A stretch of 64,000 nucleotides of DNA, from positions 3,505,605 through 3,569,604 of the forward strand of contig OZ252146.1 of the NCBI GenBank assembly GCA_965248735.1, read 5' to 3'. The translations under genes and the position numbers were made by a program. Positions within the stretch are counted from its first letter, which is position 1, and each line of letters starts with the position of its first letter. The DNA comes from Candidatus Aldehydirespirator sp. (GTDB taxonomy: Bacteria; Actinomycetota; Acidimicrobiia; Acidimicrobiales; Aldehydirespiratoraceae). The notes beneath the pieces are model-generated. The model had not been told where the DNA came from, searched no databases, and was given only the letters and a program-made list of their open reading frames with translations. This document shows, piece after piece, positions 7,011 to 20,372 of this stretch.

Positions 7011-7859
7011 TCAGGCCAGGAGGCTCCGCAACTCGGCCAGGCGCGGGGCTACCACCTCCGCGATGCTCCTGGCCCGCTCGGTCGGCGGGGCCAGAGCGGC
7101 CTCCCCCCAGAGGGCTCGTCCGGCCATGAACCCGGAGCAGCCCTCGGAAACGGCGATCTCCACCTGGTCGCGGTAGGACCGGTAGGAGCCGCCGCCCGAG
7201 AGCAGCGTCCAGGGCATGTGGCACCGCTCGCTGATCTCCGCGCAGGCGGCCGCCCACACACCGCGATCAGGCTCGTGGGCCGGGTCCACCGGGAACGGCA
7301 GCTTGAGCAGATGCGGGTCCATGGCCGCGAAGCGCTCCACGGTCTCGATCACCAGCTCCCGGCGAGCACGTGGGTCGTCGAGCCCGTAGAACAGCGGCTC
7401 CAGCACCAGCGGGATGCCCACGCGCCGGCACCCGGCGAGGATCTCGGCCGCCACCCGCTCCTGGGCTGCACCGTGGGGACGGTCCGGGCGGTACAGCACC
7501 AGCAGCTTGGCCGCAGCTGCCCCCGAAGCCGCGGCCGCGGCAACCGACCAGCCCTCCAGGACCCGCGTTGGGGCAACCTCCGGATCGGCGGCGTAGCCCT
7601 GGGCCTCCAGCGCGGCCGTGAAACCGACCCCGTCGGGCAGCGTGCCGTCGAGGAGCTGCGGGATCGAGTACTCGGGCTCGAGCATCACCCCGGTTGCGCC
7701 CTCAGCCAGCGCGCCCACCAGCTCACGCTTGAGACCGGTTATGGCATCGGCGCCGACCGAGTCCGGATCGTCAGGGGCCAGCACGGCCCGAAGGGAGTCC
7801 CGGTGATCGATGGCGAGCACCGCGAAGCGCCCGCCGTCGGAGATGCCGTCCAGGCTCAC
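7011..7859 (-). CDS. class I (LacD/YihT-type) aldolase, probable 5-dehydro-2-deoxyphosphogluconate aldolase of the iol pathway
   Basis: 282 aa. N-terminal FAVLAIDHRDSLR resembles the LacD/YihT family motif. It is the last gene of the iol operon. The functional assignment is by context. Confidence 0.7.
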   Translation of the reverse strand: MSLDGISDGGRFAVLAIDHRDSLRAVLAPDDPDSVGADAITGLKRELVGALAEGATGVMLEPEYSIPQLLDGTLPDGVGFTAALEAQGYAADPEVAPTRVLEGWSVAAAAASGAAAAKLLVLYRPDRPHGAAQERVAAEILAGCRRVGIPLVLEPLFYGLDDPRARRELVIETVERFAAMDPHLLKLPFPVDPAHEPDRGVWAAACAEISERCHMPWTLLSGGGSYRSYRDQVEIAVSEGCSGFMAGRALWGEAALAPPTERARSIAEVVAPRLAELRSLLA

Positions 7860-7936
7860 AGCAACCCCCAGCCGCTCGATGCTCCGTGCGGGCCCACAAC
7901 CGCACTCCCGCCGCCCACAACCAGACAGGGGCTCAC
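7856..7936 (-). other. 26-codon relay ORF bridging iolB stop and aldolase start
   Basis: GTG 7936-7934 overlaps the iolB TGA (7935-7933). Its TGA 7858-7856 overlaps the aldolase GTG (7859-7857). It contains a decayed junction copy (GGAGTGCGGTTGTGGGCC versus GGAGTGCGGCGGTGAGCC). Confidence 0.4.
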
Positions 7937-8793
7937 CGCCGCACTCCTGGACCGTCGGGAGTCACTACCGGCAGACCCCACTCCCCCACGTTCCAGTCGG
8001 CTTCGATCCAGGTGTGCTCGGCCATGAAACACGGCGGCGTGCGGCGATCGTCGTCCTGCAGTTCGCCCGCCAGATAGTTCAGGAAGTACATGTTGGAGCC
8101 AGGGCAGGCGACCGAGGTGTGGTAGCCCTTGGGAACGAGCGCCGCGTCGCCGTCGGATACGACCATGGCGTCGTCGTAGGACTCGTCGTGGCGCCAGTTG
8201 CGGTGGATGGCGTAGCCCTCGGGGCGGTCGAGGCGGAAGTAGTACACCTCCTCCAGGTACGGCGAGCCGTCGCGGCCGTCGTGGCAATGCGGGGGCCAAC
8301 CCGACCAGGTGCCCCGGGGCACGTACACCTCGTAGAGAATCAGGCGCTCCGCGGGCAGCGGATGGGCCAGCGAATGGACCACCTGCCGGTAGGCCTGACC
8401 GCCGCCCCGGATCTCGGTGCGCATCTCCGACGGCTCGAAGACCCGCACCGGATAGCGGCCCTCGGCCGGGGCCGAGCCGACCGACGCCTGCAACCCGGCC
8501 TCCGACTCGATCCGGAAGGGGGTTCCCGGCGGCAGGTACACGATCCGCGCCATCTCTTCGAAGACCGAACTGCGGCTCAACTCCACAAGCATCTCGTCGC
8601 CGACATGAACGCGTCCCTCGCCGGACAACGGCACTATCGCGGTCTCCCGATCAGCCGAGACGCCCGACCACGGCGCGTCCGCAGCCACCTCGACCACGCT
8701 GAACTCCACATAGTCCCAGCCGGCGGACTCAGGCGTCACATGCAGGATCCGGCCAGGCCCGTCAGCGGGCCGCAACAGGGACGAACTGGTCAT
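7933..8793 (-). CDS. iolB: 5-deoxy-glucuronate isomerase
   Basis: KduI/IolB-like sequence across the whole length. ATG 8793 is preceded by AAGGAGG. The track ORF extends to 8859, but that part has no RBS. Confidence 0.88.
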   Translation of the reverse strand: MTSSSLLRPADGPGRILHVTPESAGWDYVEFSVVEVAADAPWSGVSADRETAIVPLSGEGRVHVGDEMLVELSRSSVFEEMARIVYLPPGTPFRIESEAGLQASVGSAPAEGRYPVRVFEPSEMRTEIRGGGQAYRQVVHSLAHPLPAERLILYEVYVPRGTWSGWPPHCHDGRDGSPYLEEVYYFRLDRPEGYAIHRNWRHDESYDDAMVVSDGDAALVPKGYHTSVACPGSNMYFLNYLAGELQDDDRRTPPCFMAEHTWIEADWNVGEWGLPVVTPDGPGVRR

Positions 8794-8943
8794 CGTGATG
8801 CCTCCTTTGCCATGCGACCACACGAAATCAGTAGAGAAACCCGTCATATATCCGCACAAGTCGCACCGAGAATCTGCGAGGCCGCCCGCCGAAGTCGCAA
8901 CCGCGCTCGCAGCGGACCGCGAGACGAGACATCAGCGACGAGC

Positions 8944-9912
8944 TCACGCGGCGGCGAGCCTTCCAGTGGCCCGCTCCCGGCGGAACCGGATCAGCAGCTC
9001 CCGAATGCCGGGCGGCTCGTACCCGAGGACTTCCCTGGTGCGCCGCACGCTGAGACTGGTGTCATAGGGGATCGGGAAATCGCCCACCGCGCCCGCAGCC
9101 GATGTGTCGGGCGGTGTCGAGCTCAGCAGGGCCGGGTCGAGATCGAAGACGTCGCAGGCTATGCGGGCCAGCTCCATACGACCGGTCGACTCGGCCCCGC
9201 AGCAGTGGAAGACCCCGACGGCGGACTCGGCGGCCGCGATGCGCCACATCACCTCGGCGCACTCGCTGGCCAGCGACGGGGTAGCCGCCATGTTGATGTT
9301 GTCGGCCTCCCAGACCGCGAACTGCCGGCCGGCCTCCAGCGCGTCGACGATCGAAGTGACGAAGTAACCGAAGCCGCCGTCCTGCACCCGGGGCGTAGAG
9401 TCCCGCATCCGGTGCATACCGCTGACCGCCGACACCCGGGCCACCGCGGCCCGCCCGGCGCTCAGCATCGCGGCCTGCTCGCTGGCCATCTTGAGCACCC
9501 CGTAGAGATTCACCGGGTTGGGCGGCGTGTCCTCGTCGGCACCGGACTGGGTGCCGTCGAACACCCAGTCGGTGGACACCACGATGAGCTTGGCCCCGAC
9601 CTCGTCGGCCGCCCGGGCCAGAGTCTCGGTGGTGCCGACATAGCTGCGCCAGGCCAGGTCGCGGTCGGCGTACATGGCCGCGAAGTCGTTGAGGATCATC
9701 GAATGCACGATCACATTGGGTCCGAACGCGGCCACGCTGGCCCGCACGGCTCCGTCGTCGAGCAGGTCCAGGCGCTCCGTGGTGAACCCGCTCGATTCAG
9801 CGGGAACGAACCGGTGGACCGGGCAGTGCACGTCGGCTAGGTGGCGCTCGGCGAACACTTTGACAATGTTGGACCCGACGAAGCCGGTGCCTCCGGTCAC
9901 ATAGGCGCGCAC
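8944..9912 (-). CDS. NAD-dependent epimerase/dehydratase (RmlD-like sugar nucleotide-binding protein)
   Basis: N-terminal RAYVTGGTGFVGSNIV Rossmann motif and extended-SDR layout. GTG start. Confidence 0.8.
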   Translation of the reverse strand: MRAYVTGGTGFVGSNIVKVFAERHLADVHCPVHRFVPAESSGFTTERLDLLDDGAVRASVAAFGPNVIVHSMILNDFAAMYADRDLAWRSYVGTTETLARAADEVGAKLIVVSTDWVFDGTQSGADEDTPPNPVNLYGVLKMASEQAAMLSAGRAAVARVSAVSGMHRMRDSTPRVQDGGFGYFVTSIVDALEAGRQFAVWEADNINMAATPSLASECAEVMWRIAAAESAVGVFHCCGAESTGRMELARIACDVFDLDPALLSSTPPDTSAAGAVGDFPIPYDTSLSVRRTREVLGYEPPGIRELLIRFRRERATGRLAAA

Positions 9913-10099: not shown

Positions 10100-11110
10100 T
10101 CAGCCGATCTCTGAGATGGCCACCGGGCGGCCCTCTCGGACCGAAGCCCACGCGGCCAGACCCATCACCAGCGGGGCGCGCCCGTCGGCCAAACTCACCG
10201 GCGACGGCGCGCCGTTCACCATGGCAACGAAGGCGTCCCACTCGGCCAGATACGACGCGGTGTAGCGCTCCAGGAAGAAGTACGGCAGCGGCGGCCCGTG
10301 GGACCCTTCCGGCCCCCAGTAGAGCGCGGTTGCCGCGGGCGGGTTCTGGGAGGTGGCCATGCCGCCCGAGCCGAACGCCTCCACCCGCTGGTCGTAGCCG
10401 TAGACGGCCCGGCGGCTGTTGTCGATGGTGGTGATGGCGCCGTTGGCATGGGTCACGACCACCACGACGGTGTCGAGGTCGCCGGCCTCGCCTATGGCCG
10501 GATCTACCCGCACCGCGCCGGTTGCGTATACCTCGACCGCCTCGCTGCCGATGACGAACCGAGCCATGTCGAAGTCGTGGATCGTCATGTCGCAGAAGAT
10601 CCCGCCGGACACCTCAATGTAGGCGATGGGCGGCGGGTCGGGGTCGCGGCTGGAGATGCGTACCAGGTGCACGTCGCCCACGTCGCCGGCGGCCACCCGG
10701 TCGCGCACATGGCGGTGGGCCGCGTCGAAGCGGCGGTTGAAGCCCACCTGCACCGCGATCCCGGCCTCGGTCGCCGCCCCGATGCCCCGGTCCACCTCGG
10801 CCAGGTCCAGAGACAGCGGCTTCTCGACGAAGGCAGGCTTGCCCGCGGCCGCGACCTCCACCAACAGGTCCATGTGGGTGTCGGTGGAGCTGCAGATGGC
10901 CACGGCGTCCACGTCGTCAGCCTCGATCAGCTCAGTTGCACTGGACGCCCGCCGGGCGCCGAAGGTCTCCGCGACCGAGATGGCCATGTCGGCAGCAACG
11001 TCGTAGACAGCGGCAAGGGCCGTGCCCGGGACCCTGCGAGCGACCAGGTCGGCGTGCATGGAGCCGATACGCCCACACCCGAGCAGCCCGATGCGCACTC
11101 GTTCACTCAC
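10100..11110 (-). CDS. iolG: Gfo/Idh/MocA oxidoreductase, probable myo-inositol 2-dehydrogenase
   Basis: N-terminal IGLLGCGRIGSMHA and the AFVEKPLS (EKP) motif. GTG 11110 is preceded by GGAGAGGGGAG. iol operon context. Confidence 0.8.
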   Translation of the reverse strand: MSERVRIGLLGCGRIGSMHADLVARRVPGTALAAVYDVAADMAISVAETFGARRASSATELIEADDVDAVAICSSTDTHMDLLVEVAAAGKPAFVEKPLSLDLAEVDRGIGAATEAGIAVQVGFNRRFDAAHRHVRDRVAAGDVGDVHLVRISSRDPDPPPIAYIEVSGGIFCDMTIHDFDMARFVIGSEAVEVYATGAVRVDPAIGEAGDLDTVVVVVTHANGAITTIDNSRRAVYGYDQRVEAFGSGGMATSQNPPAATALYWGPEGSHGPPLPYFFLERYTASYLAEWDAFVAMVNGAPSPVSLADGRAPLVMGLAAWASVREGRPVAISEIG

Positions 11111-11760
11111 CGCGCCGTGCTCCCCTCTCCAGCTCCCCGCAACCAGCCCGACCCGAAGGAGCACTCACCGCGCCGCCTCCCATGGCCCGGATCGTTGTCG
11201 ATCGGCCAGCCTGCATCGCGGCCGGCGCGCTCACCGCGCCTCGGCCTGCTGGCGGGGCGCGAGGAGCGACACCAGCCGGCCGTTACGCCGTCCACGTCGT
11301 AGACCTGCATCGCGGCCGGCGCGCTCACCGCGCCTCCGCCCCTCACGGCCACGGCCACGCCGTCCACGTCGTAGACCTGCATCGCGGCCGGCGCGCTCAC
11401 CGCGCCTCCGCCCCTCACGGCCACGGCCACGCCGTCCACGTCGTAGACCTGCATCGCGGCCGGCGCGCTCACCGCGCCTCCGCCCCTCACGGCCACGGCC
11501 ACGCCGTCCACGTCGTAGACCTGCATCGCGGCCGGCGCGCTCACCGCGCCTCCGCCCCTCACGGCCACGGCCACGCCGTCCACGTCGTAGACCTGCATCG
11601 CGGCCGGCGCGCTCACCGCGGTTCCGCCCCTCACGGCCACGGCCACGCCGTCCACGTCGTAGACCTGCATCGCGGCCGGCGCGCTCACCGCGGTTCCGCC
11701 CCTCACGGCCACGGCCACGCCGTCCACGTCGTAGACCTGCATCGCGGCCGGCGCGCTCAC
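11107..11760 (-). repeat. 72-bp tandem repeat (6 intact copies plus about 218 nt of decayed copies) forming one 217-codon bridging ORF
   Basis: The gctcaccgcg junction motif recurs at 11325, 11397, 11469, 11541, 11613, 11685 and 11757. There are two unit variants (gcctccgcc and ggttccgcc). GTG 11760 overlaps the desaturase TGA. The open frame ends with TGA 11109-11107, which overlaps the iolG GTG 11110. Confidence 0.95.
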
Positions 11761-13214
11761 CGCGGTTCCGCCTGCTGGCGAGGAGCGAGGCGCGACACCA
11801 CCCGCCCGTTGCGCACGGCCACGTCGTAGAGGGTGATCGGCTCCGTCGCCGGGAAGCGCAGGGCCTCCCCGGTGCGCAGGTCGAAGCAGCCGCTGTGCTT
11901 GGGGCACTCGATCATGCCGTCGAGCACGGCTGCCTCGGCGAGGTGGGCCCTCCCGTGGGTGCACAGCCCGTCACTCAGCACGAATTCCGCGGTGGGCTCA
12001 ACGCCCCCGGTCTCGGCATCGACCTCGACCCGGTACAGGGCATAGGTGCTGTCACCGTGGTCCACCCGGCGCGCCGATCCGGGGCTCAGACCCTCGGCCG
12101 CGCCGAGGTCGACCAGCCCGTCGTGCACCTCCCCGGCCCACGCGGTGACCCCCGTGTCCACGAACGACCGCTCCTCGCCGGCGACCTCGGGCACGTCGGG
12201 ACGGGGCTCGTCATAGGACGGGTCGCGCCACTGGCGGCGCAGCGTCGCCAAGATCCGCCGGTAGGCGGTCAGCGTGGACGGATCCGGCGGGGCCAGATAC
12301 TCCTTGATCTCGGCATGGAGCGCCGGCAGCGCGTAGTAGGGCACCGTCGGGAAGATGTGATGCTCGACGTGATAGTTCATGTTGGAGTACAGGAACCTGA
12401 GCACCGGGTTCATGTACACCGTGCGGGAGTTGAGGCGATGGTCGAGCACGTCCTCTCGCAGACCCGCATGCTGCGTGACCGCGAAGAACACCATGAGCCA
12501 GGCCCCGTAGACCGTCGGCAGCCCGATGTACAGTGCCGGCACGATCGAGCCGATGGCCACGCACCACACCGCGGTGCCGGCCAGGACGGCGATGTAGGCC
12601 CGCGACTCCCACTTGAGCTTGCCCAACTCGTCGGCGGGGATAAAGTCCCGGGCGTCGTCGTCGATGCGTCCCGCGGCGTGCTTGAGGGTGCGCCACATAG
12701 CCCGGGGGACGTTCAGCACCGGCACGAACACGCCCAGCACGGCCCGCGGTGACGAGGGACGCGAGAACACGATCTCGGGGTCGCGCCCCACGACGATGGT
12801 GTCGGTGTGATGGCGCACATGCGACCAGCGCCACAGGGTGGGCTGGCGCAGCAGCATGAACGACGCGATGTAGTAGACGACATCGTTGAGCCACTTGGCC
12901 CGGAACGCGGTGCCGTGCCCGCACTCGTGCCAGCGGGAGTCGCCGGCGCCGCCGTAGAGGGCACCGTAGGCCATGAACGCCGGCACCGCCCACCACGAGC
13001 CCAGCGCGCGGAAGGCGAGATAGCCGAAGACGGCCAGCAGACCGAGCCACATGATCGTGTCGCGGGCCGCCCGGGCGTTCGTGCGGACCTGCAGAGCCCG
13101 CAGCCGCTCGGCGTCGATGGGCGGGCGGAACCACTCGGCCTCAATCAGGCCGAGATCCACCGCCCGCCGCGAGTCCGCTCCGGTCAGGCCGTAGTCGCGA
13201 ACGGTCGCGGTCAC
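11757..13214 (-). CDS. membrane fatty-acid-desaturase/hydroxylase-family di-iron protein fused to a C-terminal Rieske [2Fe-2S] domain (MocD+MocE-like)
   Basis: His boxes HECGH, HVRHH and HVEHH lie in a polytopic N-terminal part. C-terminal CTHGRAHLAEAAVLDGMIECPKH fits the Rieske pattern (CxH-16-CxxH). Confidence 0.85.
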   Translation of the reverse strand: MTATVRDYGLTGADSRRAVDLGLIEAEWFRPPIDAERLRALQVRTNARAARDTIMWLGLLAVFGYLAFRALGSWWAVPAFMAYGALYGGAGDSRWHECGHGTAFRAKWLNDVVYYIASFMLLRQPTLWRWSHVRHHTDTIVVGRDPEIVFSRPSSPRAVLGVFVPVLNVPRAMWRTLKHAAGRIDDDARDFIPADELGKLKWESRAYIAVLAGTAVWCVAIGSIVPALYIGLPTVYGAWLMVFFAVTQHAGLREDVLDHRLNSRTVYMNPVLRFLYSNMNYHVEHHIFPTVPYYALPALHAEIKEYLAPPDPSTLTAYRRILATLRRQWRDPSYDEPRPDVPEVAGEERSFVDTGVTAWAGEVHDGLVDLGAAEGLSPGSARRVDHGDSTYALYRVEVDAETGGVEPTAEFVLSDGLCTHGRAHLAEAAVLDGMIECPKHSGCFDLRTGEALRFPATEPITLYDVAVRNGRVVSRLAPRQQAEPR

Positions 13215-13291
13215 TGCGGCATCTCCGCGGTCAACAGTTCCGGGCCCGATTCCGGTCCGGGGAGGCCGTAGTCGCGCACGATCGTCCTCAT
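13211..13291 (-). other. 26-codon relay ORF made of a copy of the desaturase head plus the SDR tail
   Basis: ATG 13291 overlaps the SDR TGA (ATGA). TGA 13213-13211 overlaps the desaturase GTG 13214 (GTGA). The peptide is MRTIVRDYGLPGPESGPELLTAEMPQ; compare the desaturase head MTATVRDYGLTGADS and the SDR tail PGPELGPRPAESGTQP. Confidence 0.5.
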
Positions 13292-14142
13292 GGCTGCGTT
13301 CCCGACTCAGCCGGCCGCGGACCCAGTTCCGGTCCGGGGAACACAGAGTCGCCCGCGCCCAGCACGGTCTGGTCCCACTCCACCACCGCGCCGGTCATCA
13401 TCCCCGACTCGGCCGTGGCCAGATGCACGATCGTGCGGGCGATCTCGGAGGGCTTGATCAGCCGGCCGAAGGGCATCTCGGCCTCGGCCCGCTCCAGCCA
13501 TCCGTCGGTGGCGCCGCCGAAGGTCCGCTGCACGATGTCCTCGGCGGGGGTGTCCATCCATCCCGGGCACAGCAGGTTCACGCGGATCCGGTGGCGCATC
13601 AGCGCGAAAGCCAGGTTGCGGGTCATCGCCACCAGCGCCCCCTTGGAGGTGGCATAGGGCAGCAGCTTCGGCGGGCCTCCCCGACCGGCGATCGAGCCGA
13701 TCAGCACGATGGTGCCCTCGACGGACTCTCGGGCCATGATCCGGGCCACCCCTTGGCTGAGCAGGCCCGGCGCCTTCACGTTGACGGCCAGCATGGCGTC
13801 CCACAGCTCGGGCGTGGCGTCCCACACCGAGCCCCGGTCGGTGACGGCCGCGCAGTTGACGAAGCTGTGGCAGGTGCCGAATCTCTCGTCCAGGGCCACG
13901 ATCACCGTCTCGCAGGCATCGGGATGGGCAAGGTCAGCGGCCACGAACTCCGCCCGGCATTCAGGCGTTCGCAGCGAGGCCGCGGCAGCCTCTCCCTTGG
14001 CCCGGTCCCGACCGACCAGCATGAGCCCGGCCGCCCCCTCCGACACCAATCGCTGGGCCACCGCGTAGCCAAGACCCTGGGAGCCGCCGGTGACCAGCGC
14101 GATTCCACGGCTGAACGAACCAAGAGGACGCGGCTCGGTCAT
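13288..14142 (-). CDS. short-chain dehydrogenase/reductase (SDR)
   Basis: ALVTGGSQGLGYA cofactor motif and classical SDR length. ATG 14142 chosen because everything upstream is the 35-bp repeat. Confidence 0.85.
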   Translation of the reverse strand: MTEPRPLGSFSRGIALVTGGSQGLGYAVAQRLVSEGAAGLMLVGRDRAKGEAAAASLRTPECRAEFVAADLAHPDACETVIVALDERFGTCHSFVNCAAVTDRGSVWDATPELWDAMLAVNVKAPGLLSQGVARIMARESVEGTIVLIGSIAGRGGPPKLLPYATSKGALVAMTRNLAFALMRHRIRVNLLCPGWMDTPAEDIVQRTFGGATDGWLERAEAEMPFGRLIKPSEIARTIVHLATAESGMMTGAVVEWDQTVLGAGDSVFPGPELGPRPAESGTQP

Positions 14143-14425
14143 GCGGCCGCGGTCCCAACCCCGGCAGGCTCGGTCATGCGGCCGCGGTCCCAACCCCGGC
14201 AGGCTCGGTCATGCGGCCGCGGTCCCAACCCCGGCAGGCTCGGTCATGCGGCCGCGGTCCCAACCCCGGCAGGCTCGGTCATGCGGCCGCGGTCCCAACC
14301 CCGGCAGGCTCGGTCATGCGGCCGCGGGTCCCAACCCCGGCAGGCTCGGTCATGCGGCCGCGGTCCCAACCCCGGCAGGCTCGGTCATGCGGCCGCGGTC
14401 CCAACCCCGGCAGGCTCGGTCACCG
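14132..14425 (-). repeat. 35-bp tandem repeat (8 intervals, one of 36) encoding a chain of 7 relay mini-ORFs upstream of the SDR gene
   Basis: Minus-strand unit ATGACCGAGCCTGCCGGGGTTGGGACCGCGGCCGC. Start codons at 14423 (GTG), 14388, 14353, 14317, 14282, 14247, 14212, 14177 and 14142 (SDR). Each 12-aa ORF MTEPAGVGTAAA ends in an ATGA shared with the next start. Confidence 0.95.
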
Positions 14426-14454: not shown

Positions 14455-16338
14455 TCACCAGCCCACCCGCTGGGCGGCGCGGCCCGCGTCCATCGCCGCC
14501 CTGGCCTCCTTCACCGAGGCGCGGCCGCTCACCTCGGGCACGCCCACCTCCCAGAACGAGCCGCCCTCGGTCCAGCGGTGGGGATGGGTCTTGAGGGCGA
14601 TCACGTAAGTGCGGTCGGAGGCTCTGGCCCGCTCGATGGCCGACTCCAGCTCGGAGATGGAGCCCACCGTCTCGGTCTCGCAGCCCATCGAGGCCGCATG
14701 GGCCGCGAAGTCGACAGCGACCAGCCGCTCGGTGCGGCAGTCCTCGAAGAGATTGTTGAACGAGGCGCCGCCCTGATTGACCTGGAGCCGGTCGATCACC
14801 GCGTAGCCGCCGTTGTCGGCCACGATCACGATGAGCTTGTGCCCGGTGAGCACCGTGCTGTACAGGTCACTGTTCATCATGAGGTAGGAGCCGTCGCCCA
14901 GCAGCACCACCACCTCGCGCTCGGGCATCGCCATCTTGGCGCCCCAGGCGCCTGAGATCTCGTAGCCCATGCACGAGTAGCCGTACTCGCAGTCAAAGGA
15001 ATGCACCGTGCGGGCGCGCCAGCCGTTGACGAGCTCGCCGGGCAGGCCCCCGGCCGCGGCGACGACGTAGGTGGAGGCGTCCGCGGCCCGGTCCACCGCC
15101 CCCACCACCTGGGCGTAGGTGGGCAAGTCGGCGTGAGGGTCCGAAGATCGGTCGCCGCCGGTGGCCGCGACAGTCACTGGCGCGGCGATCTTGTCGATGT
15201 AGGCGTGGTACTGCGCGGTCTCCGACGCAGCCCGCACCGTCCAGTCGCCGCTGGCCCGGTAGTCGCTGAGGGCCGTGCCCAACTCCCGGAGGCCCTCGCG
15301 GGCGTCGGCCACTAGCGGCAGGCACATGTGCTTGGTGGCATCGAAGCGGGCCGCGTTGAGCCCGACGATCTCTGCGGACTCGTCGCCGAACACCGTCCAT
15401 GAGCCGGTGGTGAAGTCCTGCATTCTCGTGCCCACCGCCAGCACCACATCGGCGTCGGCGGCCATGGCGTTGGCCGAGACGCAGCCGGTCACTCCGATGG
15501 GGCCGCAGTTCAGCGGATGGTGCGCCGGCAGTGAGGTGCGGCCCGCGGTGGTCTCTACCACGGGGATGCCGTGGGCTTCGGCGAAGGCGGCGAGCTGCTC
15601 CTCCGCCAGCGACCAGCGCACCCCTCCGCCCGCGATGATGAGGGGGCGCTCGGCTCGGGCCAGCGCAGCCGCGGCCCTTCGCAGCTCGCCCGCGTCGGGG
15701 CGGGGCCGGCGGATGTGGTGCACCCTCTCGGCGAAGAACCCGACCGGATAGTCGTAGGCCTCGGCCTGAACGTCCTGGGGCAGGGCGATGAAGGCCGGGC
15801 CGCAGTCGCCGGGGTCGAGCATGGTGTTGAGAGCCTGGGGCAGCGACTGCACCACCTGCTCGGGGGTGGTGATCCGGTCCCAGTAGCGCACTACCGCCCG
15901 GAAGGCGTCGTTGACGGTGGTGGCCGGCGCCCCGAAGTGCTCCACCTGCTGCAGCACCGGGTCCACGATGCGATGCTCGAAGGTGTCGCCGGCCAGCAGC
16001 AGCAGCGGCAGCCGGTTGGCGAGCGCCACCGCGGCCGCGGTCACCATGTTGGTGGCGCCGGGGCCGATCGAGCTGGCCGCCACCATGATCCGGCGGCGCT
16101 TGGCGGCCCGGGCGAACCCGCAGGCGGCCAGCGCCATCCCCTGCTCGTTCTGGCCCCGCCAGGTGGGCAGCACATCCTGTGCCTGCTCGAGCTCGTGGCC
16201 GAGGCAGGTCACGTTGCCGTGGCCGAATATGGCGAACACGCCCGCGAACAGCGGCACCACCTGACCGTCGACCTCGATGCGCTGGGCAGCCAGGTAGCGC
16301 ACCACGGCGCCCGATGCAGTCAGCCTGATCGTGTCCAC
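14455..16338 (-). CDS. iolD: 3D-(3,5/4)-trihydroxycyclohexane-1,2-dione acylhydrolase (ThDP-dependent)
   Basis: 627 aa with ThDP-enzyme layout and the GDGSYLM cofactor motif. The N-terminus IRLTASGAVVRYLAAQ is typical of IolD. Confidence 0.9.
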   Translation of the reverse strand: MDTIRLTASGAVVRYLAAQRIEVDGQVVPLFAGVFAIFGHGNVTCLGHELEQAQDVLPTWRGQNEQGMALAACGFARAAKRRRIMVAASSIGPGATNMVTAAAVALANRLPLLLLAGDTFEHRIVDPVLQQVEHFGAPATTVNDAFRAVVRYWDRITTPEQVVQSLPQALNTMLDPGDCGPAFIALPQDVQAEAYDYPVGFFAERVHHIRRPRPDAGELRRAAAALARAERPLIIAGGGVRWSLAEEQLAAFAEAHGIPVVETTAGRTSLPAHHPLNCGPIGVTGCVSANAMAADADVVLAVGTRMQDFTTGSWTVFGDESAEIVGLNAARFDATKHMCLPLVADAREGLRELGTALSDYRASGDWTVRAASETAQYHAYIDKIAAPVTVAATGGDRSSDPHADLPTYAQVVGAVDRAADASTYVVAAAGGLPGELVNGWRARTVHSFDCEYGYSCMGYEISGAWGAKMAMPEREVVVLLGDGSYLMMNSDLYSTVLTGHKLIVIVADNGGYAVIDRLQVNQGGASFNNLFEDCRTERLVAVDFAAHAASMGCETETVGSISELESAIERARASDRTYVIALKTHPHRWTEGGSFWEVGVPEVSGRASVKEARAAMDAGRAAQRVGW

Positions 16339-16363
16339 GGCGGCCTCCCCGTTCTCGTCACCG

Positions 16364-17536
16364 TCAATCGATCCTCACCGACACGACGTCCGTCCAGGCG
16401 CCGGTCTCCCAGCTTCGCAGCAGCGCCGCCTGCACGCTCACGTACTCCAACGCCTGCTCGAGGCCGGCCGAGTGGGGCCGGTCCTCGGCGACCGCCGTGA
16501 GGAACTCGTAGTCCTGGATCGTTACCACGTCCTCGAATCCGATCGAGTTGGCCTCACCCGGGACAAAGTCGCTATGGAAGGGATGCCGCTCGCCGGCAAA
16601 AACTGTGGTGTAGCCCTGGTCGCCGCGGCCGAGCTGGAACATCCGGATCTCGTTCATCGTCTCCAGGTTCCAGCTGAGCGCGCCCTCGGTGCCGTGAACG
16701 TCGAAGGCCATCTGGCTCTGAGGCCCAACCATCGTCCGGCTGGCCTCGAAAGTGCCGCGACTGCCGTTGGCGAACACGGCCATAGCGCCGAAGTAGTCCT
16801 CGTTGGTGACCACGCCCACCGGGTCGCCCGGCACGCCCCGGTCGTAGTGGGTTCCCGACGCGGACGGCAGCGGCCTCTCCTTGATGAACGTCTCGCCGGT
16901 TCCCACCACCCGCAGGATCGGGCCGTTGAGCATCATCGCCAAGTCGATGGCGTGGCTGAGGATGTCGGTGGACACGCCGTGCCCCGCCTGATCGAGCAGG
17001 AAGCGCCATGTGAGCAGGCCGAGCGGGTCGGCGCCGTACACCGACAGGAAGCGGCCCCGATAATTGGTGATCTGGCCCAGCTCGCCGGAATCGATCAGGT
17101 TGCGGACGTGCTGCACGAGCGGCACGAACCGGTAGTTGTAGCCGACCCCCGTGATGACCCCTGCGTCGCGGCAGGCCTTCTCGGCCCGGGCCGTCTGCTC
17201 GGGGGTGCCCCCGACCGGCTTCTCGCAGAACACGTGCTTTCCCGCTCCGGCGGCCGCCTCGACGATCTCGCAGTGCAGTATGTTGGGCGCGCAGATCACG
17301 ACAACGTCCACCTCAGGGTGCTCGACCGCGGCTCGCCAGTCGCCGGTGGTGTGACGGAAGCCGAAATCGGTGGCCGCCGAGGAGCGCCGCTCTGCCAGCG
17401 TGTCAGCGCATACCGTCAGCTCGGGCCGGCACGCGAGGCCGTCGAAGATCATGGGCAGGCGCGCGTAGGAGCGGGCGTGGGCCTGGCCCATCCAGCCGAA
17501 GCCGATCACCGCCATGCCCAGGCGGCGGGCGCTCAT
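16364..17536 (-). CDS. Gfo/Idh/MocA family oxidoreductase (second inositol/inosose dehydrogenase candidate)
   Basis: MAVIGFGWMGQAHA Rossmann motif and the FCEKPVGG EKP motif. ATG 17536 gives a family-typical N-terminus; the track start at 17761 adds an Arg/Pro-rich extension. Confidence 0.85.
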   Translation of the reverse strand: MSARRLGMAVIGFGWMGQAHARSYARLPMIFDGLACRPELTVCADTLAERRSSAATDFGFRHTTGDWRAAVEHPEVDVVVICAPNILHCEIVEAAAGAGKHVFCEKPVGGTPEQTARAEKACRDAGVITGVGYNYRFVPLVQHVRNLIDSGELGQITNYRGRFLSVYGADPLGLLTWRFLLDQAGHGVSTDILSHAIDLAMMLNGPILRVVGTGETFIKERPLPSASGTHYDRGVPGDPVGVVTNEDYFGAMAVFANGSRGTFEASRTMVGPQSQMAFDVHGTEGALSWNLETMNEIRMFQLGRGDQGYTTVFAGERHPFHSDFVPGEANSIGFEDVVTIQDYEFLTAVAEDRPHSAGLEQALEYVSVQAALLRSWETGAWTDVVSVRID

Positions 17537-17598
17537 CGGACTCCGCCACCGGCGGCGGCCGGGTCGAGCGAGGTCGAAGGGTTGCCAGGCGCGGTCAT
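17533..17598 (-). other. 21-codon relay ORF bridging the 2-HADH stop and the Gfo oxidoreductase start
   Basis: ATG 17598 overlaps TGA 17597-17595. TGA 17535-17533 overlaps ATG 17536. Peptide MTAPGNPSTSLDPAAAGGGVR. Confidence 0.35.
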
Positions 17599-18551
17599 GA
17601 CGCTCTGCGACGGTCCACAGCCGGGTCGGCCGCGGAGGCATCCAGGAGGTGCTCAGGCGTTTCGCCGCGCAGCCATTGGGCCGCCTGGCCGAGGGCCTGA
17701 CCGATGAGGCGCACAGCCCCGGCGGTGGTGGACGAGGCCACGTGCGGGGTGACGATAACATCTTCGCGCCCGAGCAGCGGATGGCCCGCAGGCAGCGGTT
17801 CGGGCTCGGTCACATCGAGGCCGGCCCCTGCGATTTGACCGGACTCAAGGCCGGCGAGCAGCGCGTCGTGGTCGATCAACGAGCCCCGGGCACAGTTGAC
17901 GATGATCACGCCCGGTCGCATGGCCGAAATGCTGTCGGGGTTGACCATGTGGCGTGTCGCCTCGGTCGCAGGCGCGTGCAGCGACACCGCATCACTGCAC
18001 CGCCACAGTTCGTCGAGGTCCACGAGTTCGGCCACGCCCTCGGTGTCGGATGCCTGCAGGTGCGCGTCGTACACGAGAACTCTCATGCCCAGCGCGGCCG
18101 CGTAGCGCGCCACGCGCCTGCCGATGCGCCCGCAGCCGACCAGCCCCAGAGTCCGGCCCTCGAGTTCGAGGGCGCAGTGAACCGCCCGATAGTCACCGAG
18201 ACCAGCGTGAAGCCGCAGCTCAGAGCGCTTGATCCGTTTGGCCACAGCCAACAGCAGCGCCAGGGAGTGCTCGGCGGTGGAGACCGTGGGAGCGGCGGGC
18301 GTGTTGCACGCAGCAACCCCGACCGCCGCGCACCCGGCCGGATCGACATTGTCGTAGCCGATGCCGGCGCGGGCCACCACCTTGAGCCGGGGCAGGCGGC
18401 TGCACACGGCCGCGTCCCAGGGTTCGTTGGCGCCCACGATCACACCGTCCGCGTCGGCGAGGTCGCCGGTCAGCTCGAGGTCGTCGGGGATGGCGACCTC
18501 CGGCGGCGGCGGTCGGTCGATCCAGATGCGCCAGGGCGCCGCGGTGCTCAC
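17595..18551 (-). CDS. D-2-hydroxyacid / phosphoglycerate dehydrogenase-like NAD-dependent dehydrogenase
   Basis: GLVGCGRIGRRVA Rossmann motif, IVNCARGSLID, and the VIVTPHVAS catalytic-His region. GTG 18551 overlaps the iolC stop (GTGA). Confidence 0.85.
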   Translation of the reverse strand: MSTAAPWRIWIDRPPPPEVAIPDDLELTGDLADADGVIVGANEPWDAAVCSRLPRLKVVARAGIGYDNVDPAGCAAVGVAACNTPAAPTVSTAEHSLALLLAVAKRIKRSELRLHAGLGDYRAVHCALELEGRTLGLVGCGRIGRRVARYAAALGMRVLVYDAHLQASDTEGVAELVDLDELWRCSDAVSLHAPATEATRHMVNPDSISAMRPGVIIVNCARGSLIDHDALLAGLESGQIAGAGLDVTEPEPLPAGHPLLGREDVIVTPHVASSTTAGAVRLIGQALGQAAQWLRGETPEHLLDASAADPAVDRRRAS

Positions 18552-19519
18552 GCCGCCGACACCTGAGCAATCCCGGGGTCCGCGCCGGCGAGCACGGCGT
18601 CGATCTCGGCTGCGGTGGGCATGGCGTCGGCGCACGTCAGCCGGCCAGCCACGATCGCACCCGCGGCGTTGGCCCTGGTGACGGTCTCGGTGGGTTCGAG
18701 GCCTGCCAGGAGCCCGTCGGCCAGCGCACCGCCGAAGGCGTCGCCAGCGCCGAGCCCGCACACCACCTCGACCGGCACCGGTGGAACCGCCGACCTGCTG
18801 TCGGGCGTCGCGACCAGCACGCCATCGGCCCCCATCTTCACCACCGCCAGCGACACGCCCCGTTCGAGCAGCCGGTCGGCGGCCTCATCCGGATCGGCGG
18901 TGCCCACCGCGATCTCGCACTCGGTCCGGTTGCCGACGGCCACCGTGGCGTAGTCGACAGCCGCCCCGATGTGCTCGGACGCCTCGGCCGGCGACGACCA
19001 GAAGCTAGGGCGGTAGTCCAGGTCGAGAACGGTGTGCTCGGTCCGGTTGCGCCTTTCCAGCGCGGTGCGCACCGCCGAGCGTGACGGCTCCTGCGCGAAG
19101 CGCGAGCCCGTCACCCACAGCACAGGCACAGCGTAAGCCGCCTGGGGAATGTCGGCGATCGTGAGGTTCATGTCGGGACCTCGCGGCTCCCGGTAGAAGA
19201 GCAGGGGCGGGTCGGTCGGGGGATCCAGCGCACAGAAGGCCAAGGCGGTTCGCAGGTGCGGGTCCACCGAGACGTAGTCGTTGACCACACCGAACTGCTC
19301 GGCCAGGGCCGTGCGGATGTACTCGCCGAAGCCGTCGTCGCCGACCCGGGTGACCACCGCGGCCCGCCGGCCCAGCCGGGAGGCGGCCACGGCAACGTTG
19401 GTGGGCGAGCCGCCGATCGACTTGACGAACGACGACACCCCGCTGAGGGGCACCCCGCTCTGCTGCGGGTAGAGATCGACGCTGACGCGGCCGACGGTCA
19501 GCAGCTCGAGCTCAGCCAT
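18548..19519 (-). CDS. iolC: 5-dehydro-2-deoxygluconokinase (PfkB family)
   Basis: PfkB signatures (GGSPTNVAVA and GAGDAFGGAL) in iol context. ATG 19519 gives a family-typical N-terminus (MAELELLTVGRVSVDLYP). Confidence 0.85.
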   Translation of the reverse strand: MAELELLTVGRVSVDLYPQQSGVPLSGVSSFVKSIGGSPTNVAVAASRLGRRAAVVTRVGDDGFGEYIRTALAEQFGVVNDYVSVDPHLRTALAFCALDPPTDPPLLFYREPRGPDMNLTIADIPQAAYAVPVLWVTGSRFAQEPSRSAVRTALERRNRTEHTVLDLDYRPSFWSSPAEASEHIGAAVDYATVAVGNRTECEIAVGTADPDEAADRLLERGVSLAVVKMGADGVLVATPDSRSAVPPVPVEVVCGLGAGDAFGGALADGLLAGLEPTETVTRANAAGAIVAGRLTCADAMPTAAEIDAVLAGADPGIAQVSAA

Positions 19520-19586: not shown

Positions 19587-20372
19587 TCAGTTGGTGCCGG
19601 CCTGAGCCAGTTCGTGCTGCAACTCCTTGAGTTCGGCGCCACCGGCCATGAGCTGGGTCAATTCGGCCTGCGACAGCTCGTCCTTGGCCCAGTTGCCGAG
19701 CGACTGGCCCCGCTGCAGGATCACAAAACGGTCGCCCACGGGGTAGGCGTGGTTGGGGTTGTGGGTGATGAAGATCACGGCCAGACCCTGGTCGCGGGCC
19801 TCGACGATGCGGCGCAGCACCACGCCAGACTGCTTCACGCCCAGCGCCGAGGTGGGCTCGTCGAGGATCAGCACCCGGGCGCCGAAGTAGCTGGCCCTGG
19901 CGATGGCCACCGACTGGCGCTCGCCGCCCGAAAGCGTGCCCACGCTCTGCTCGGTGTCGCGGATGTCGATGCCCATCTTGGCCATCTCGTCCTTGGCGAT
20001 CATCTTGGCCTTGTCGATGTCGATCTGGCGGAACGGCCACACGCCCTTCTTTGGCTCCTGGCCGAGGAAGAAGTTCCGCCAGACCGACATCAGGGGGACC
20101 ATGGCCAGATCCTGGTACACGGTGGCGATGCCCGCGGTCAGCGCCTCGCGCGGGGAGGCGAACTTCACGTGGGTGCCCTCCAGGAGCAGTTCTCCCTCGT
20201 CGTGCTGGTGCACGCCGGCAAGGATCTTGATGAAGGTGGACTTGCCTGCGCCGTTGTCGCCGAGCACGCATGTCACCTCGCCGGGGTTGACGGTCGTGGT
20301 GACGCCGGTGAGAGCGATGATGTTGCCGTAGAACTTCGACAAGCCACGAAGCTCGAGGAATTCGGTGCTCAT
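19587..20372 (-). CDS. sugar ABC transporter ATP-binding protein (single NBD)
   Basis: Walker [10 protein letters not shown], signature LSGGERQ, Walker B LILDEPT. ATG 20372 is preceded by AAAGGAGG and overlaps the permease stop (ATGA). Only the last 261 codons of track ORF 19587..22142 are real. Confidence 0.9.

Follow-up and report, generated by a model that had tools for sequence, protein, structure and literature searches.

A MocD-MocE-like fusion protein in an actinobacterial inositol operon, a candidate O-methyl-cyclitol demethylase

The inositol operon

The window, the whole 64-kb stretch of DNA that was analyzed, contained a 14-gene operon on the minus strand, in which a gene for a MocD-MocE-like fusion protein was located between the iolD/SDR genes and iolG. 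The operon was assigned to myo-inositol catabolism (iol) because IolG, IolD, IolB, and IolC all scored above their equivalog cutoffs. No iolA was found in the window, and a search for promoters and terminators along the operon yielded no signal above chance. The features were as follows.

7011-7859, minus strand: DeoC/LacD-family aldolase (IolJ-like), last gene of the operon (Pfam/NCBIfam; below its cutoff)
7933-8859, minus strand: iolB (TIGR04378, 230 bits, cutoff 205)
8944-9912, minus strand: RmlD-like NAD-dependent epimerase/reductase (Pfam/NCBIfam)
10100-11164, minus strand: iolG, inositol 2-dehydrogenase, next downstream of the fusion gene (TIGR04380, 394 bits, cutoff 355)
11285-11772, no strand: near-perfect tandem repeat, 72 bp x 6.8, filling the gap from the stop codon of the fusion gene to iolG
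11757-13214, minus strand: MocD-MocE-like fusion with di-iron oxygenase domain, linker, and Rieske ferredoxin domain (ORF, Pfam, identity to MocD and MocE)
13211-13291, minus strand: 26-codon upstream ORF (read from the sequence)
13288-14142, minus strand: SDR oxidoreductase of the PRK06198 subfamily, directly upstream of the fusion gene (NF004847, 337 bits, cutoff 240)
14455-16338, minus strand: iolD (TIGR04377, 850 bits, cutoff 715)
16364-17536, minus strand: second GFO/Idh/MocA dehydrogenase, levoglucosan/scyllo-inositol dehydrogenase-like (Pfam, NCBIfam)
17595-18551, minus strand: D-2-hydroxyacid dehydrogenase family gene (Pfam; start inferred from the gene call of the related locus L001)
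18548-19519, minus strand: iolC, 5-dehydro-2-deoxygluconokinase (TIGR04382, 343 bits, cutoff 300)
19587-20372, minus strand: ABC transporter ATPase (Walker A and signature motifs; ABC_tran in the L001 orthologue)
20369-22759, minus strand: ABC permease of 796 residues (BPD_transp_2)
22905-23948, minus strand: sugar/cyclitol substrate-binding lipoprotein (Peripla_BP_4; PDB 4ru1, E 4e-52)
23954-24931, minus strand: IolE-like xylose-isomerase-type TIM barrel, first gene of the operon (PF01261)
25045-26223, plus strand: divergent LacI-family regulator (orthologues beside the operon in loci L021, L023, L029, L033, and L053)

An earlier note on this DNA had placed the fusion gene between iolD/SDR and iolG, which was confirmed by the profile scores of the neighbors. 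The extra SDR, two extra dehydrogenases, and epimerase that it described were also found, the last three as the second GFO dehydrogenase, the 2-hydroxyacid dehydrogenase, and the RmlD-like gene. Homologues of the SDR with 41-46% identity were located beside MocD/E-type genes in the non-actinobacterial loci L054, L077, L082, and L084. The second GFO dehydrogenase matched the PDB entries 6a3f (E 6e-73) and 5ya8, a “scyllo-inositol dehydrogenase” (E 2e-58), and was 34% identical to MocA over the N-terminal half only. Among the NCBIfam models, the binding protein matched the rhizopine SBP model best, with 205 bits where the cutoff is 420; its identity to MocB was 25%. The IolE-like protein scored 159 bits with TIGR04379 (cutoff 290) and was 32% identical to the iolE/mocC-like gene product of Phyllobacterium.

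Two small features adjoined the fusion gene. The 26-codon ORF overlapped the stop of the SDR gene (ATGA) and the start of the fusion gene (GTGA), and its N-terminus MRTIVRDYGL duplicated VTATVRDYGL of the fusion protein. The 72-bp array had 2.8 copies in the 96% identical relative at L001. It was considered as the source of extra Rieske-like strands and was rejected as a part of the protein, since it begins after the stop codon and its copy number differs between near-identical genomes.

Domain architecture of the fusion protein

The ORF listing and translation showed an intact reading frame with a GTG start, encoding 485 residues. The GC3 of the gene was 0.89, which was usual for genes of this 70% G+C window. 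An exact-sequence look-up gave no database record for the window protein, and its homologue P0001, which had the same length and was 96% identical, was used in its place. The following parts were located on the gene.

12915-12929, minus strand: His box 1, HECGH, residues 96-100 (translation; H96, E97, G99, and H100 invariant in 26 homologues)
12807-12821, minus strand: His box 2, HVRHH, residues 132-136 (translation; invariant in 26 homologues)
12357-12371, minus strand: His box 3, HVEHH, residues 282-286 (translation; invariant in 26 homologues)
12288-12998, minus strand: FA_desaturase-type di-iron domain, residues 73-309 (PF00487, E 7.7e-39)
12120-12197, minus strand: inter-domain linker, about residues 340-365 (poorly conserved; pLDDT <50 at residues 344-360)
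11826-12107, minus strand: Rieske [2Fe-2S] ferredoxin-type domain, residues 370-463 (PF00355, E 3e-10)
11895-11963, minus strand: Rieske cluster ligands CTH-x17-CPKH, namely C418, H420, C437, and H440 (translation; invariant in 26 homologues)

The N-terminal domain belonged to the desaturase superfamily with 134.4 bits for PF00487 against a gathering cutoff of 29.7, and the C-terminal domain was of the Rieske ferredoxin type with 40.3 bits for PF00355 against 20.3. The translation also showed the pattern of the superfamily, in which the boxes HX3-4H, HX2-3HH, and HX2-3HH are combined with four membrane helices in two pairs. The helices were assigned to residues 46-69, 76-99, 194-221, and 225-249 from the AlphaFold model and the hydropathy peaks, and they formed two pairs as in membrane desaturases. 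The ligands were invariant in an alignment of 26 homologues with 56-96% identity. Pfam and the translation thus bore out the membrane domain of desaturase/hydroxylase type with three His boxes, followed by a C-terminal Rieske domain, which the earlier note had described.

In a Foldseek search, the Rieske domain aligned with the ferredoxin components CarAc and BphA3 with a TM of ~0.9. The predicted fold resembles the electron-carrier ferredoxin components of multicomponent oxygenases and not the catalytic Rieske oxygenases. Sequence searches of the PDB matched the Rieske part only, and no solved relative of the N-terminal domain was found at E < 0.01. The Foldseek matches of the N-terminal domain were FADS-like and weak, and therefore no structural inference on the substrate pocket was drawn from them. 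The segment between TM4 and His box 3 (residues 249-272) was modelled poorly, so that the pocket gave no constraint on the substrate.

Relation to MocD and MocE

The locus L004 of Phyllobacterium zundukense Tri-48 was used as the reference for MocD and MocE, representing the rhizobial moc genes (Bahar et al. 1998, 2000). This locus holds the whole moc set, including a MocR-type regulator, mocA, mocB, a mocC/iolE-like gene, and mocDEF, and it also holds PurU. The N-terminal part of the fusion protein was 49% identical to MocD over 360 of 361 residues (E 6e-119) and collinear with it, and the C-terminal part was 39% identical to MocE over 105 residues, end to end (E 1e-22). The alignment with MocD ended and that with MocE began in the linker. 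MocD has no curated model; membership was judged by full-length collinear similarity, which was found here, and the fusion gene was the sole match in the window when MocD was used as the query. In addition, tblastn returned 444 plasmid records with adjacent MocD-like/MocE-like pairs collinear with the fusion.

The MocE family model TIGR02377 was the top-ranked NCBIfam match, but the whole protein scored 72.7 bits and the isolated domain 77.4 bits, both below the cutoff of 136.15. True or split MocE proteins scored 178-186 bits and the other actinobacterial fused domains 83-95 bits. By the curated standard, the Rieske domain therefore falls outside the family, as a sister branch that has diverged from it. 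In a distance-based neighbor-joining tree of 85 N-terminal domains, midpoint-rooted with no outgroup and no support values, the window protein was placed in an actinobacterial fused clade, which was sister to the split clade containing the MocD of L004 and not nested in it; the specificity of the two may thus differ. The homology to MocD and MocE, which the earlier note had put forward, holds at these identities to a genuine moc locus, whereas family membership of the Rieske domain under TIGR02377 and a position inside the MocD clade did not stand.

Distribution and neighboring genes

The two domains were encoded by a single ORF in 56 of the 84 related loci, nearly all from Actinomycetota. The 27 split loci belonged to non-actinobacterial lineages, among them Alphaproteobacteria and Cohnella, and a MocF-like reductase gene adjoined most of them. 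The fusion is far commoner than the earlier note had implied, and its value as a rarity is lowered by the thousands of database sequences with this form. About 25 of the 56 fused loci were inside iol operons, with varying insertion points, and represented six or more subclades within the fused clade; the linkage to inositol genes was conserved across many Acidimicrobiia. More than half of the fused loci did not adjoin iol genes, and the family therefore probably has several substrates. The neighbors in these contexts were sugar ABC transporters, Zn-dependent alcohol dehydrogenases, ROK regulators, and KDPG aldolase.

The earlier note had seen no ferredoxin reductase in the window, and our results agreed with it: neither tblastn, for which two MocF sequences and the FNR-like domain of P0123 served as queries, nor Pfam scans of the other plausible ORFs found a MocF-like/FNR-like reductase in the 64 kb. 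None was found beside any actinobacterial fused locus either. The three-component MocDEF arrangement, with an adjacent MocF-type FAD-dependent ferredoxin reductase, was thus not present in the 64-kb window. Triple fusions of the type FA_desaturase-Rieske-FAD_binding_6/NAD_binding_1 were found in P0123 (760 residues) and at the Verrucomicrobiota locus L076 (751 residues). They should be self-sufficient owing to their own FAD/NAD(P)H reductase domain, and their domain order lays out the expected electron chain from reductase to Rieske domain to di-iron site. PanB-like genes occurred at 11 split and 2 fused loci, including L050 inside an Acidimicrobiales iol operon, and neither PanB-like nor PurU genes were found in the window by tblastn. 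The recurrence of these THF/C1 genes (PanB-like, PurU) beside family members fits a release of C1 units or formaldehyde.

Proposed reaction

On this evidence we lean, with restrained confidence, towards the fusion being a candidate single-polypeptide version of MocD/MocE that removes the methyl group from an O-methyl-inositol or a similarly decorated inositol. The protein combines the two domains with their metal-ligand motifs, is homologous to MocD and MocE over their full lengths, and belongs to an operon whose linkage to this family is conserved; the electron path, reaction type, substrate, and product are those that we infer. The enzyme would be an integral-membrane His-ligated di-iron monooxygenase of the FA_desaturase/AlkB/XylM superfamily bearing a dedicated Rieske ferredoxin on its cytoplasmic C-terminus. 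A decorated cyclitol, likeliest an O-methyl-inositol (pinitol, ononitol, or sequoyitol), would be imported by the ABC transporter of the operon. A flavoprotein reductase encoded elsewhere in the genome would transfer electrons from NAD(P)H, one at a time, to the Rieske domain, which would reduce the di-iron site. O2 would be activated at this site and the methyl C-H bond hydroxylated, and the resulting hemiacetal would collapse to a free inositol isomer and formaldehyde. The isomer would then be converted to scyllo-inosose by IolG, the scyllo-inositol-dehydrogenase-like GFO enzyme, and the SDR, and scyllo-inosose would be degraded by the IolE-like protein, IolD, IolB, IolC, and the aldolase.

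Studies of other organisms bear on this proposal. In Rhizobium mesoamericanum, root exudate, in which pinitol was most abundant, induced mocDEF homologues, a mocB-like transporter, and iol genes (PMC5789663). A P450 system that oxidatively demethylates 6-O-methyl-galactose to the sugar and formaldehyde is a precedent for the chemistry (PMC6292453). Erwinia degrades pinitol with no demethylase, although only vanB-type genes were tested in that paper, and demethylation is therefore not obligatory for growth on methyl-inositols (PMC9788770). In the literature, O-demethylation by members of the family, MocDE included, was found only as a proposal, the role of the archetype being a genetic model, and the searches brought up no paper that describes a fusion of desaturase and Rieske domains in the catabolism of inositol, nor one that describes a demethylase of this type for pinitol or ononitol in bacteria. 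Against the demethylase reading, a source of O-methyl-inositols has not been established for a sponge-associated marine actinobacterium, the window lacks the reductase, PanB-like, and PurU genes, the Rieske domain scored below the MocE cutoff, and the protein belongs to a sister clade.

Alternative explanations

The same type of enzyme and electron chain could catalyze another reaction on a cyclitol or sugar derivative, such as hydroxylation of a deoxy-inositol (quercitol-type) or a C-methyl-inositol, oxidative loss of a different substituent (amino or N-methyl, for instance), or demethylation acting on a methoxy-sugar and not on a cyclitol. We regard this as unlikely, but it carries real weight, because the membrane di-iron oxygenases of the superfamily catalyze a wide range of C-H oxidations, the fused proteins are found in a variety of non-iol settings, the poorly modelled pocket region sets no constraint, and the window contains no C1-handling gene. 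Removal of an O-methyl group is nevertheless favored by the only genetically studied relatives, which serve the catabolism of O-methylated cyclitols, and by the recurring PanB-like/PurU neighbors, which fit C1 release better than a simple hydroxylation. The logic of the operon further requires a product acceptable to IolG-type dehydrogenases. A lipid desaturase or hydroxylase, acting for example on the acyl chains of phosphatidylinositol or on other membrane lipids and present in the operon by chance or through a coupling of lipids and inositol, is very improbable. The database annotation “fatty acid desaturase” and the Pfam FA_desaturase domain with its four membrane helices would agree with such a function; however, the DesA, DesB, and CrtR models gave only 28-40 bits against cutoffs of 475-500, MocD was equally weak, and the clustering with unrelated lipid desaturases that the earlier note had named as contrary evidence was not seen. 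The closest relatives were all MocD-type genes in catabolic clusters for sugars or cyclitols, and chance does not explain the linkage to iol genes, since it recurs in many lineages with different gene orders.

Homology to both MocD and MocE, the rhizopine SBP model as the sole NCBIfam match of the binding protein, and the GFO-family (MocA-like) and IolE/MocC-like genes might suggest a bona fide enzyme for rhizopine (3-O-methyl-scyllo-inosamine or scyllo-inosamine) and make the operon a moc locus. This reading was rejected, and we give it even less credence than a lipid enzyme, because the binding protein and the GFO dehydrogenase are only remotely similar to MocB and MocA, and the operon did not show the MocR, MocB, MocA, and MocC of a moc locus. 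Its regulator is of the LacI type and a MocR-type regulator is absent, as is an aminotransferase; nothing links the host, an actinobacterium of a marine or sponge setting, to legume nodules, and the fused clade is apart from the clade of true MocD. The least probable explanation is an inactive relic whose reductase partner is not encoded nearby. The lack of a MocF-like/FNR-like gene in the window and at all actinobacterial fused loci speaks for it, but the frame is intact, the metal ligands do not vary among the homologues, the GC3 is typical of expressed genes, and the gene is conserved across the whole clade. Moreover, rhizopine catabolism reportedly does not require mocF, implying that a generic reductase is able to take its place.

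Implications

For over 25 years, papers have cited MocDE(F) as the rhizopine-demethylating oxygenase; no report showing the reaction was found, and the literature gives the function of mocDEF-like clusters outside rhizopine loci as unclear. Four points are new here: the MocD/MocE pair occurs as a single polypeptide throughout Actinomycetota, the fused form has been repeatedly recruited into inositol operons, putatively self-sufficient triple fusions exist, and THF/C1 genes travel with the family. Together they give a testable functional hypothesis and better experimental material than the three-gene rhizobial system. The actinobacterial fused clade could, as a tentative view that falls a little short of probable, be a large unrecognized family of putative membrane FADS-type O-demethylases of carbohydrates or cyclitols, a second independent solution beside the P450. 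If this is true, thousands of “fatty acid desaturase” genes would be re-annotated, and methylated cyclitols would be added to the substrates of marine and sponge-associated Acidimicrobiia and would be a real carbon currency in the habitats of these symbionts, including the sponge holobiont. Like the arginine hydroxylase GntB before it, the enzyme would be a rare example of a membrane protein with the desaturase fold whose substrate is small and polar, and the fused and triple-fused forms would permit in vitro reconstitution of the proposed MocDE reaction. If it is wrong, the family would still be a conserved accessory oxygenase of cyclitol catabolism with another substrate.

Comparison with known systems

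For the catabolism of rhizopine, 3-O-methyl-scyllo-inosamine, MocDE(F) has been put forward as a complex of ferredoxin and oxygenase (Bahar 1998, as recounted in PMC5132102 and PMC10107442). The rhizobial proteins have the same three His boxes and the same CxH/CxxH ligands as the fusion, both systems are associated with inositol-pathway genes, and the chemistry proposed for both is the removal of a cyclitol O-methyl group by an oxygenase. However, the oxygenase and ferredoxin are encoded by two genes in the moc locus and form one polypeptide here, no MocF reductase, MocR regulator, PanB-like, or PurU gene is adjacent here, and the window Rieske domain has an insertion of ~10 residues relative to MocE. 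The hosts also differ, being rhizobial in one case and an actinobacterium of a marine or sponge setting in the other.

Also related are the LacI(FixV-like)-linked mocDEF-like clusters of rhizobia, Rhodobacteraceae, and Pseudomonas syringae, for which an “inositol derivative” was suggested as the substrate (PMC3538637, PMC5132102, PMC5789663); the fusion was not described in these three papers. LacI-type regulation, a xylose-isomerase-like TIM barrel, and a sugar ABC transporter are shared with the window, and sometimes also the same SDR and IolG-like genes (L077, L082, L084). Unlike the window, these clusters have split genes with 45-50% identity, a PanB-like gene, and nearly always a MocF-like reductase. 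The triple fusions (P0123, L076, and L073 of Thermoflexales) start with the two domains of the window protein, in unchanged order and with 43-45% identity, and bear the reductase domain in addition, whereas the window protein ends after the Rieske domain.

In the natural AlkB-rubredoxin (AlkG) fusions and in XylM/XylA, a membrane di-iron hydroxylase likewise has an iron-sulfur electron carrier of its own. Their design is shared with the fusion, as a His-box di-iron membrane hydroxylase is joined, by a covalent bond or by tight association, to a carrier of single electrons that faces the cytoplasm, but the carrier is a rubredoxin or a plant-type ferredoxin-reductase instead of a Rieske protein, the substrates are hydrophobic hydrocarbons, and no sequence similarity of these systems to the fusion was detectable in the PDB search. 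A functional analogue is the experimentally proven P450 6-O-methyl-D-galactose demethylase of marine porphyran degraders, which acts with a ferredoxin and a ferredoxin reductase (PMC6292453, PMC10033563, PMC9400963). This three-component marine system also converts a carbohydrate O-methyl ether with release of formaldehyde and thereby opens a standard sugar pathway, but its catalyst is an unrelated soluble haem P450 with another class of substrate. The solved structures closest to the C-terminal domain are CarAc, BphA3/BphF, and the NDO ferredoxin (E ~1e-11, TM ~0.9), which are pure electron shuttles. These are free-standing proteins of 100 residues serving soluble Rieske oxygenases, whereas the domain in the window is tethered to a membrane di-iron enzyme.

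Structure of the fusion protein

The window has a G+C content of about 70%, so that long spurious ORFs are common in it. The codon-position bias of the fusion ORF (11757-13214, minus strand) was that of the real genes of the window (GC3 0.89, GC2 0.52). The domain architecture of the 485-aa product was demonstrated by Pfam, with FA_desaturase at residues 73-309 (E 7.7e-39) and a Rieske domain at residues 370-463 (E 3e-10). The translation contained three His boxes (HECGH 96-100, HVRHH 132-136, and HVEHH 282-286) and the Rieske ligands CTH-x17-CPKH at residues 418-440, and all of them were invariant across 26 aligned homologues with identities of 56-96%. The GTG at 13214 is the correct start, since the alignment with MocD begins at residue 1 and the 96%-identical relative (P0001) is equal in length. 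In the AlphaFold model (mean pLDDT 73.7), the long helices formed two pairs, residues 344-360 formed a disordered linker, and the C-terminal domain was β-rich. Foldseek superposed this last domain, with a TM of ~0.9, on the Rieske ferredoxins that serve carbazole, biphenyl, and naphthalene dioxygenases. These ferredoxins are of the electron-shuttle type and are not catalytic Rieske oxygenases.

The inositol gene cluster

The fusion gene belonged to a co-directional cluster running from 24931 down to 7011 on the minus strand, with a LacI-family regulator gene divergent from it. A consensus scan found no intergenic terminators in the cluster beyond chance.

Genes of the cluster in transcription order (all minus strand)
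1, IolE-like TIM barrel, below the equivalog cutoff
2, substrate-binding lipoprotein (Peripla_BP_4)
3, 796-aa permease (BPD_transp_2)
4, ABC ATPase (ABC_tran found in the orthologue)
5, iolC, above the NCBIfam equivalog cutoff
6, 2-hydroxyacid dehydrogenase
7, GFO-family dehydrogenase; nearest solved relatives include levoglucosan dehydrogenase and a scyllo-inositol dehydrogenase
8, iolD, above the NCBIfam equivalog cutoff
9, PRK06198-type SDR
10, 11757-13214, MocD-MocE-like fusion
11, iolG, above the NCBIfam equivalog cutoff
12, RmlD-like epimerase/reductase
13, iolB, above the NCBIfam equivalog cutoff
14, DeoC-type aldolase, below cutoff

The ABC permease (20369-22759, minus strand) was unusually long, with 796 aa in the window and 792 aa in L001, the locus of the 96%-identical relative. 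Because the BPD_transp_2 match was limited to the C-terminal third (residues 504-753), the extra length is a large additional membrane region, which was kept in relatives. A DUF222/HNH-endonuclease ORF lay just outside the operon (3760-5361, plus strand). In L001 a DDE_3 transposase (15931-17019), absent from the window, was inserted between the aldolase and DUF2238 genes, an indication that mobile elements were recently active at the operon edge. The remaining window contained the housekeeping genes infB, nusA, truB, ribF, dxr, and rseP, an M1 peptidase, and a giant ORF of 5967 aa (29896-47799, plus strand). This ORF had an N-terminal signal-like segment, a tract of 30-bp (TDPPA/V) repeats at 30580-31105, numerous repeated Ig/cadherin-like modules, and three 64-aa C-terminal repeats at 47103-47643, and its product is probably a cell-surface adhesin of a sponge-associated lineage.

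Tandem repeats at gene boundaries

Near-perfect tandem repeats with periods of 35, 36, 39, 72, and 77 bp were located exactly at gene boundaries in the window and in L001, and their units contained start-codon or stop-codon contexts.

Near-perfect tandem repeats
Window: 11285-11772, 14132-14422, 2919-3155, 601-741, 54330-54481
L001: 8744-9041, 11443-11641, 20793-21326

The SDR start ATGACCGAGCC was carried by the 35-bp unit, and the GCGGTGA stop of the fusion by the 72-bp unit. In L001, both of the corresponding gene boundaries examined had arrays, and the 36-bp unit had a counterpart elsewhere in the locus. Since the arrays were common to both loci and differed in copy number (6.8 in the window and 2.8 in L001 for 72 bp; 6.6 and 14.6 for 36 bp), they look like real, fast-evolving VNTRs, which could tune the translational coupling of genes in an operon. 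A 26-codon ORF (13211-13291, minus strand) occupied the gap from the SDR to the fusion gene, overlapping the stop of the former (ATGA) and the start of the latter (GTGA). The 10 N-terminal residues of this ORF, MRTIVRDYGL, nearly duplicated the N-terminus of the fusion, VTATVRDYGL. The ORF thus looks like a duplicated and decayed 5' end of the fusion gene, in line with the repeats at the gene boundaries.

Distribution of the fusion and its linkage to inositol genes

More than 7,600 homologues came from a word-indexed search; the best 120 of these all contained both domains, and their named sources were Acidimicrobiia, Ilumatobacteraceae, and Candidatus Poriferisocius. An exhaustive search of representatives gave 5,247 clusters (50% identity) at E <= 1e-3 and 294 at E <= 1e-30. 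Scanning one genome per species gave 588 relatives, 80 of whose loci were retrieved; the closest named organism was Candidatus Aldehydirespirator (90% identity), and MAGs derived from sponges came next. Sponge-symbiotic lineages have been described among Aldehydirespiratoraceae (PMC11706023). When 84 loci were each checked for one ORF spanning both parts, 56 were fused, nearly all of them from Actinomycetota with two exceptions, and 27 were split into two genes (Alphaproteobacteria, Cohnella, and others). In a midpoint-rooted neighbour-joining tree of the N-terminal domains, without support values, the actinobacterial fused clade was separate from the split clade holding genuine MocD. The two exceptions, which came from MAGs of Burkholderiaceae and Verrucomicrobiota, fell within the split clade of this tree and are independent fusions.

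At least two iol genes were found within 10 kb at about 25 of the 56 fused loci, and these iol-linked loci were spread over at least six subclades of the fused clade. In the window and its relatives, the fusion gene stood between iolD, accompanied or not by the SDR, and iolG; at other loci it was inserted at the operon head between the LacI gene and iolE (L023 and L029), between the GFO gene and iolB (L035), or after the aldolase (L021). This repeated linkage with shuffled gene order argues for a function of the fusion in the same pathway as the iol genes, and chance does not explain it. The PRK06198-type SDR also accompanied MocD/E-type genes outside Actinomycetota (41-46% identity; L054, L077, L082, and L084), and in the last of these, from marine Rhodobacteraceae, the split genes adjoined iolD, iolG, and the SDR. 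Because the other half of the fused loci had varied sugar-type contexts, the family probably covers several substrates. In low-G+C marine Acidimicrobiia (L043, L045, and L083), iol genes were absent and four conserved genes lay upstream of the fused gene; by eye, their products resembled a DapB-like oxidoreductase, a glyoxalase/VOC protein, an HD-domain protein, and an alpha/beta hydrolase. This context hints that the substrate of the subclade is a different one.

Electron transfer partner

A MocF-like reductase gene was directly downstream in almost all split loci, where a PanB-like gene and a divergent MocB-like binding protein were also frequent. The 1998 work of Bahar reportedly proposes conversion to scyllo-inosamine and is said to find mocF dispensable. 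No MocF-like or FNR-like neighbour was found at any actinobacterial fused locus examined. No flavoprotein reductase was present among the window genes, and tblastn with MocF from two species, the FNR-like reductase domain, the PanB-like protein, and PurU gave no match in the 64 kb, in agreement with the earlier note, which had seen no ferredoxin reductase partner in the window. In three sequences, the fusion was extended by FAD_binding_6/NAD_binding_1 domains.

Triple fusions (desaturase-Rieske-FNR-like reductase)
L076, 3302-5557, 751 aa, Verrucomicrobiota
L073, 6136 to contig end, truncated, Thermoflexales
P0123, metagenomic protein, 760 aa

Judged from their sequences, these proteins of about 750-760 aa should each act as a MocDEF system that needs no partner, with electrons passing from NAD(P)H to the flavin reductase, the Rieske domain, and then the di-iron site, and they serve as a key to this electron path. 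Their existence accounts for the odd "NqrF" labels in JGI annotations, and they are ideal for biochemistry.

Reaction and substrate

In the passages citing Bahar 1998 (PMC5132102, PMC10107442, PMC5789663), rhizobial MocDE(F) is proposed as a ferredoxin-oxygenase complex acting on 3-O-methyl-scyllo-inosamine ahead of the inositol pathway. The chemistry that we infer for the fusion is that of a MocDE-type monooxygenase, probably acting on a cyclitol derivative. We lean slightly towards an O-methyl-cyclitol demethylase feeding the iol pathway.

Three indirect lines, namely the PanB-like and purU neighbours, induction by a pinitol-rich exudate, and a P450 precedent, speak for a methyl ether as the source of a released C1 unit. 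PanB-like genes recurred beside MocD/E family members in three phyla, in Alphaproteobacteria and two Acidimicrobiales loci among others.

Loci with the PanB-like gene
L004 (14759-16500), L002, L003, L050, L064, L067, L070, L077-L079, L081, L082, L084

The encoded hydroxymethyltransferase was divergent (126 bits against a PanB cutoff of 272). In L050 (Acidimicrobiales), the gene was 60% identical to that of Phyllobacterium and lay inside an iol operon bearing the fused gene, and in the genuine moc locus (L004, Phyllobacterium zundukense Tri-48) it was followed by purU, which suggests a dedicated route for the released C1 unit. Mimosa root exudate, in which pinitol was the most abundant measured component (145 uM) and rhizopine was absent, induced mocDEF homologues, a mocB-like transporter, and iol genes in Rhizobium mesoamericanum (PMC5789663); the link from pinitol to this induction is drawn by us and not by those authors. 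A P450 demethylates 6-O-methyl-galactose to galactose and formaldehyde (PMC6292453). Against the demethylase reading, however, the C1-handling genes and the reductase were missing from the window, and Erwinia uses pinitol without demethylation (PMC9788770).

Comparison with the moc system

No published account of the fused form, or of a bacterial enzyme of this type that demethylates methyl-inositols, was found in the literature search. The function of non-rhizopine mocDEF clusters has been called unclear (PMC5132102), and "an inositol derivative" has been suggested for them (PMC3538637). Since databases contain many such fusions, labelled "fatty acid desaturase", what makes the finding valuable is not rarity but the functional hypothesis and the experimental handle that it offers.

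Searching 72,556 plasmids by tblastn gave 444 records, mostly rhizobial, in which the fusion was collinear with two adjacent genes (93-98% coverage, 45-50% identity) annotated as "fatty acid desaturase family protein" and "MocE family 2Fe-2S type ferredoxin" or as "hydrocarbon oxygenase MocD-like" and "Rieske MocE-like". One of these records, L004, carried a complete moc set, comprising an iolE/mocC-like gene, Gfo/Idh/MocA, a sugar-binding protein, and a MocR-type PLP-dependent regulator, followed by mocD, mocE, an FAD-dependent oxidoreductase (mocF), the PanB-like hydroxymethyltransferase, and purU. The homology to MocD and MocE suggested in the earlier note held against this locus, with 49% identity to MocD over 360 of 361 residues (E 6e-119) and 39% to MocE over all 105 residues (E 1e-22). 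Grouping with unrelated lipid desaturases, which by the earlier note would speak against its demethylase candidate, was not seen, because curated lipid-desaturase and carotenoid-hydroxylase models gave the fusion 28-40 bits against cutoffs near 500, and MocD itself scored equally weakly. The best NCBIfam family for the Rieske domain was TIGR02377 (MocE family), at 72.7-77.4 bits and below the cutoff of 136.15, whereas true and split MocE scored 178-186 bits and the other actinobacterial fused domains 83-95 bits. Other moc components were not recognisable in the window, where the substrate-binding protein was 25% identical to MocB, the regulator was LacI and not MocR, and MocF was absent. The fusion is thus clearly homologous to MocD and MocE and would work like the two combined, but it falls below the curated MocE threshold and belongs to a sister clade, another gene context, and another phylum; for these reasons, it is filed as a fused, actinobacterial, iol-embedded variant of the MocDE kind and not as a member of the moc system.
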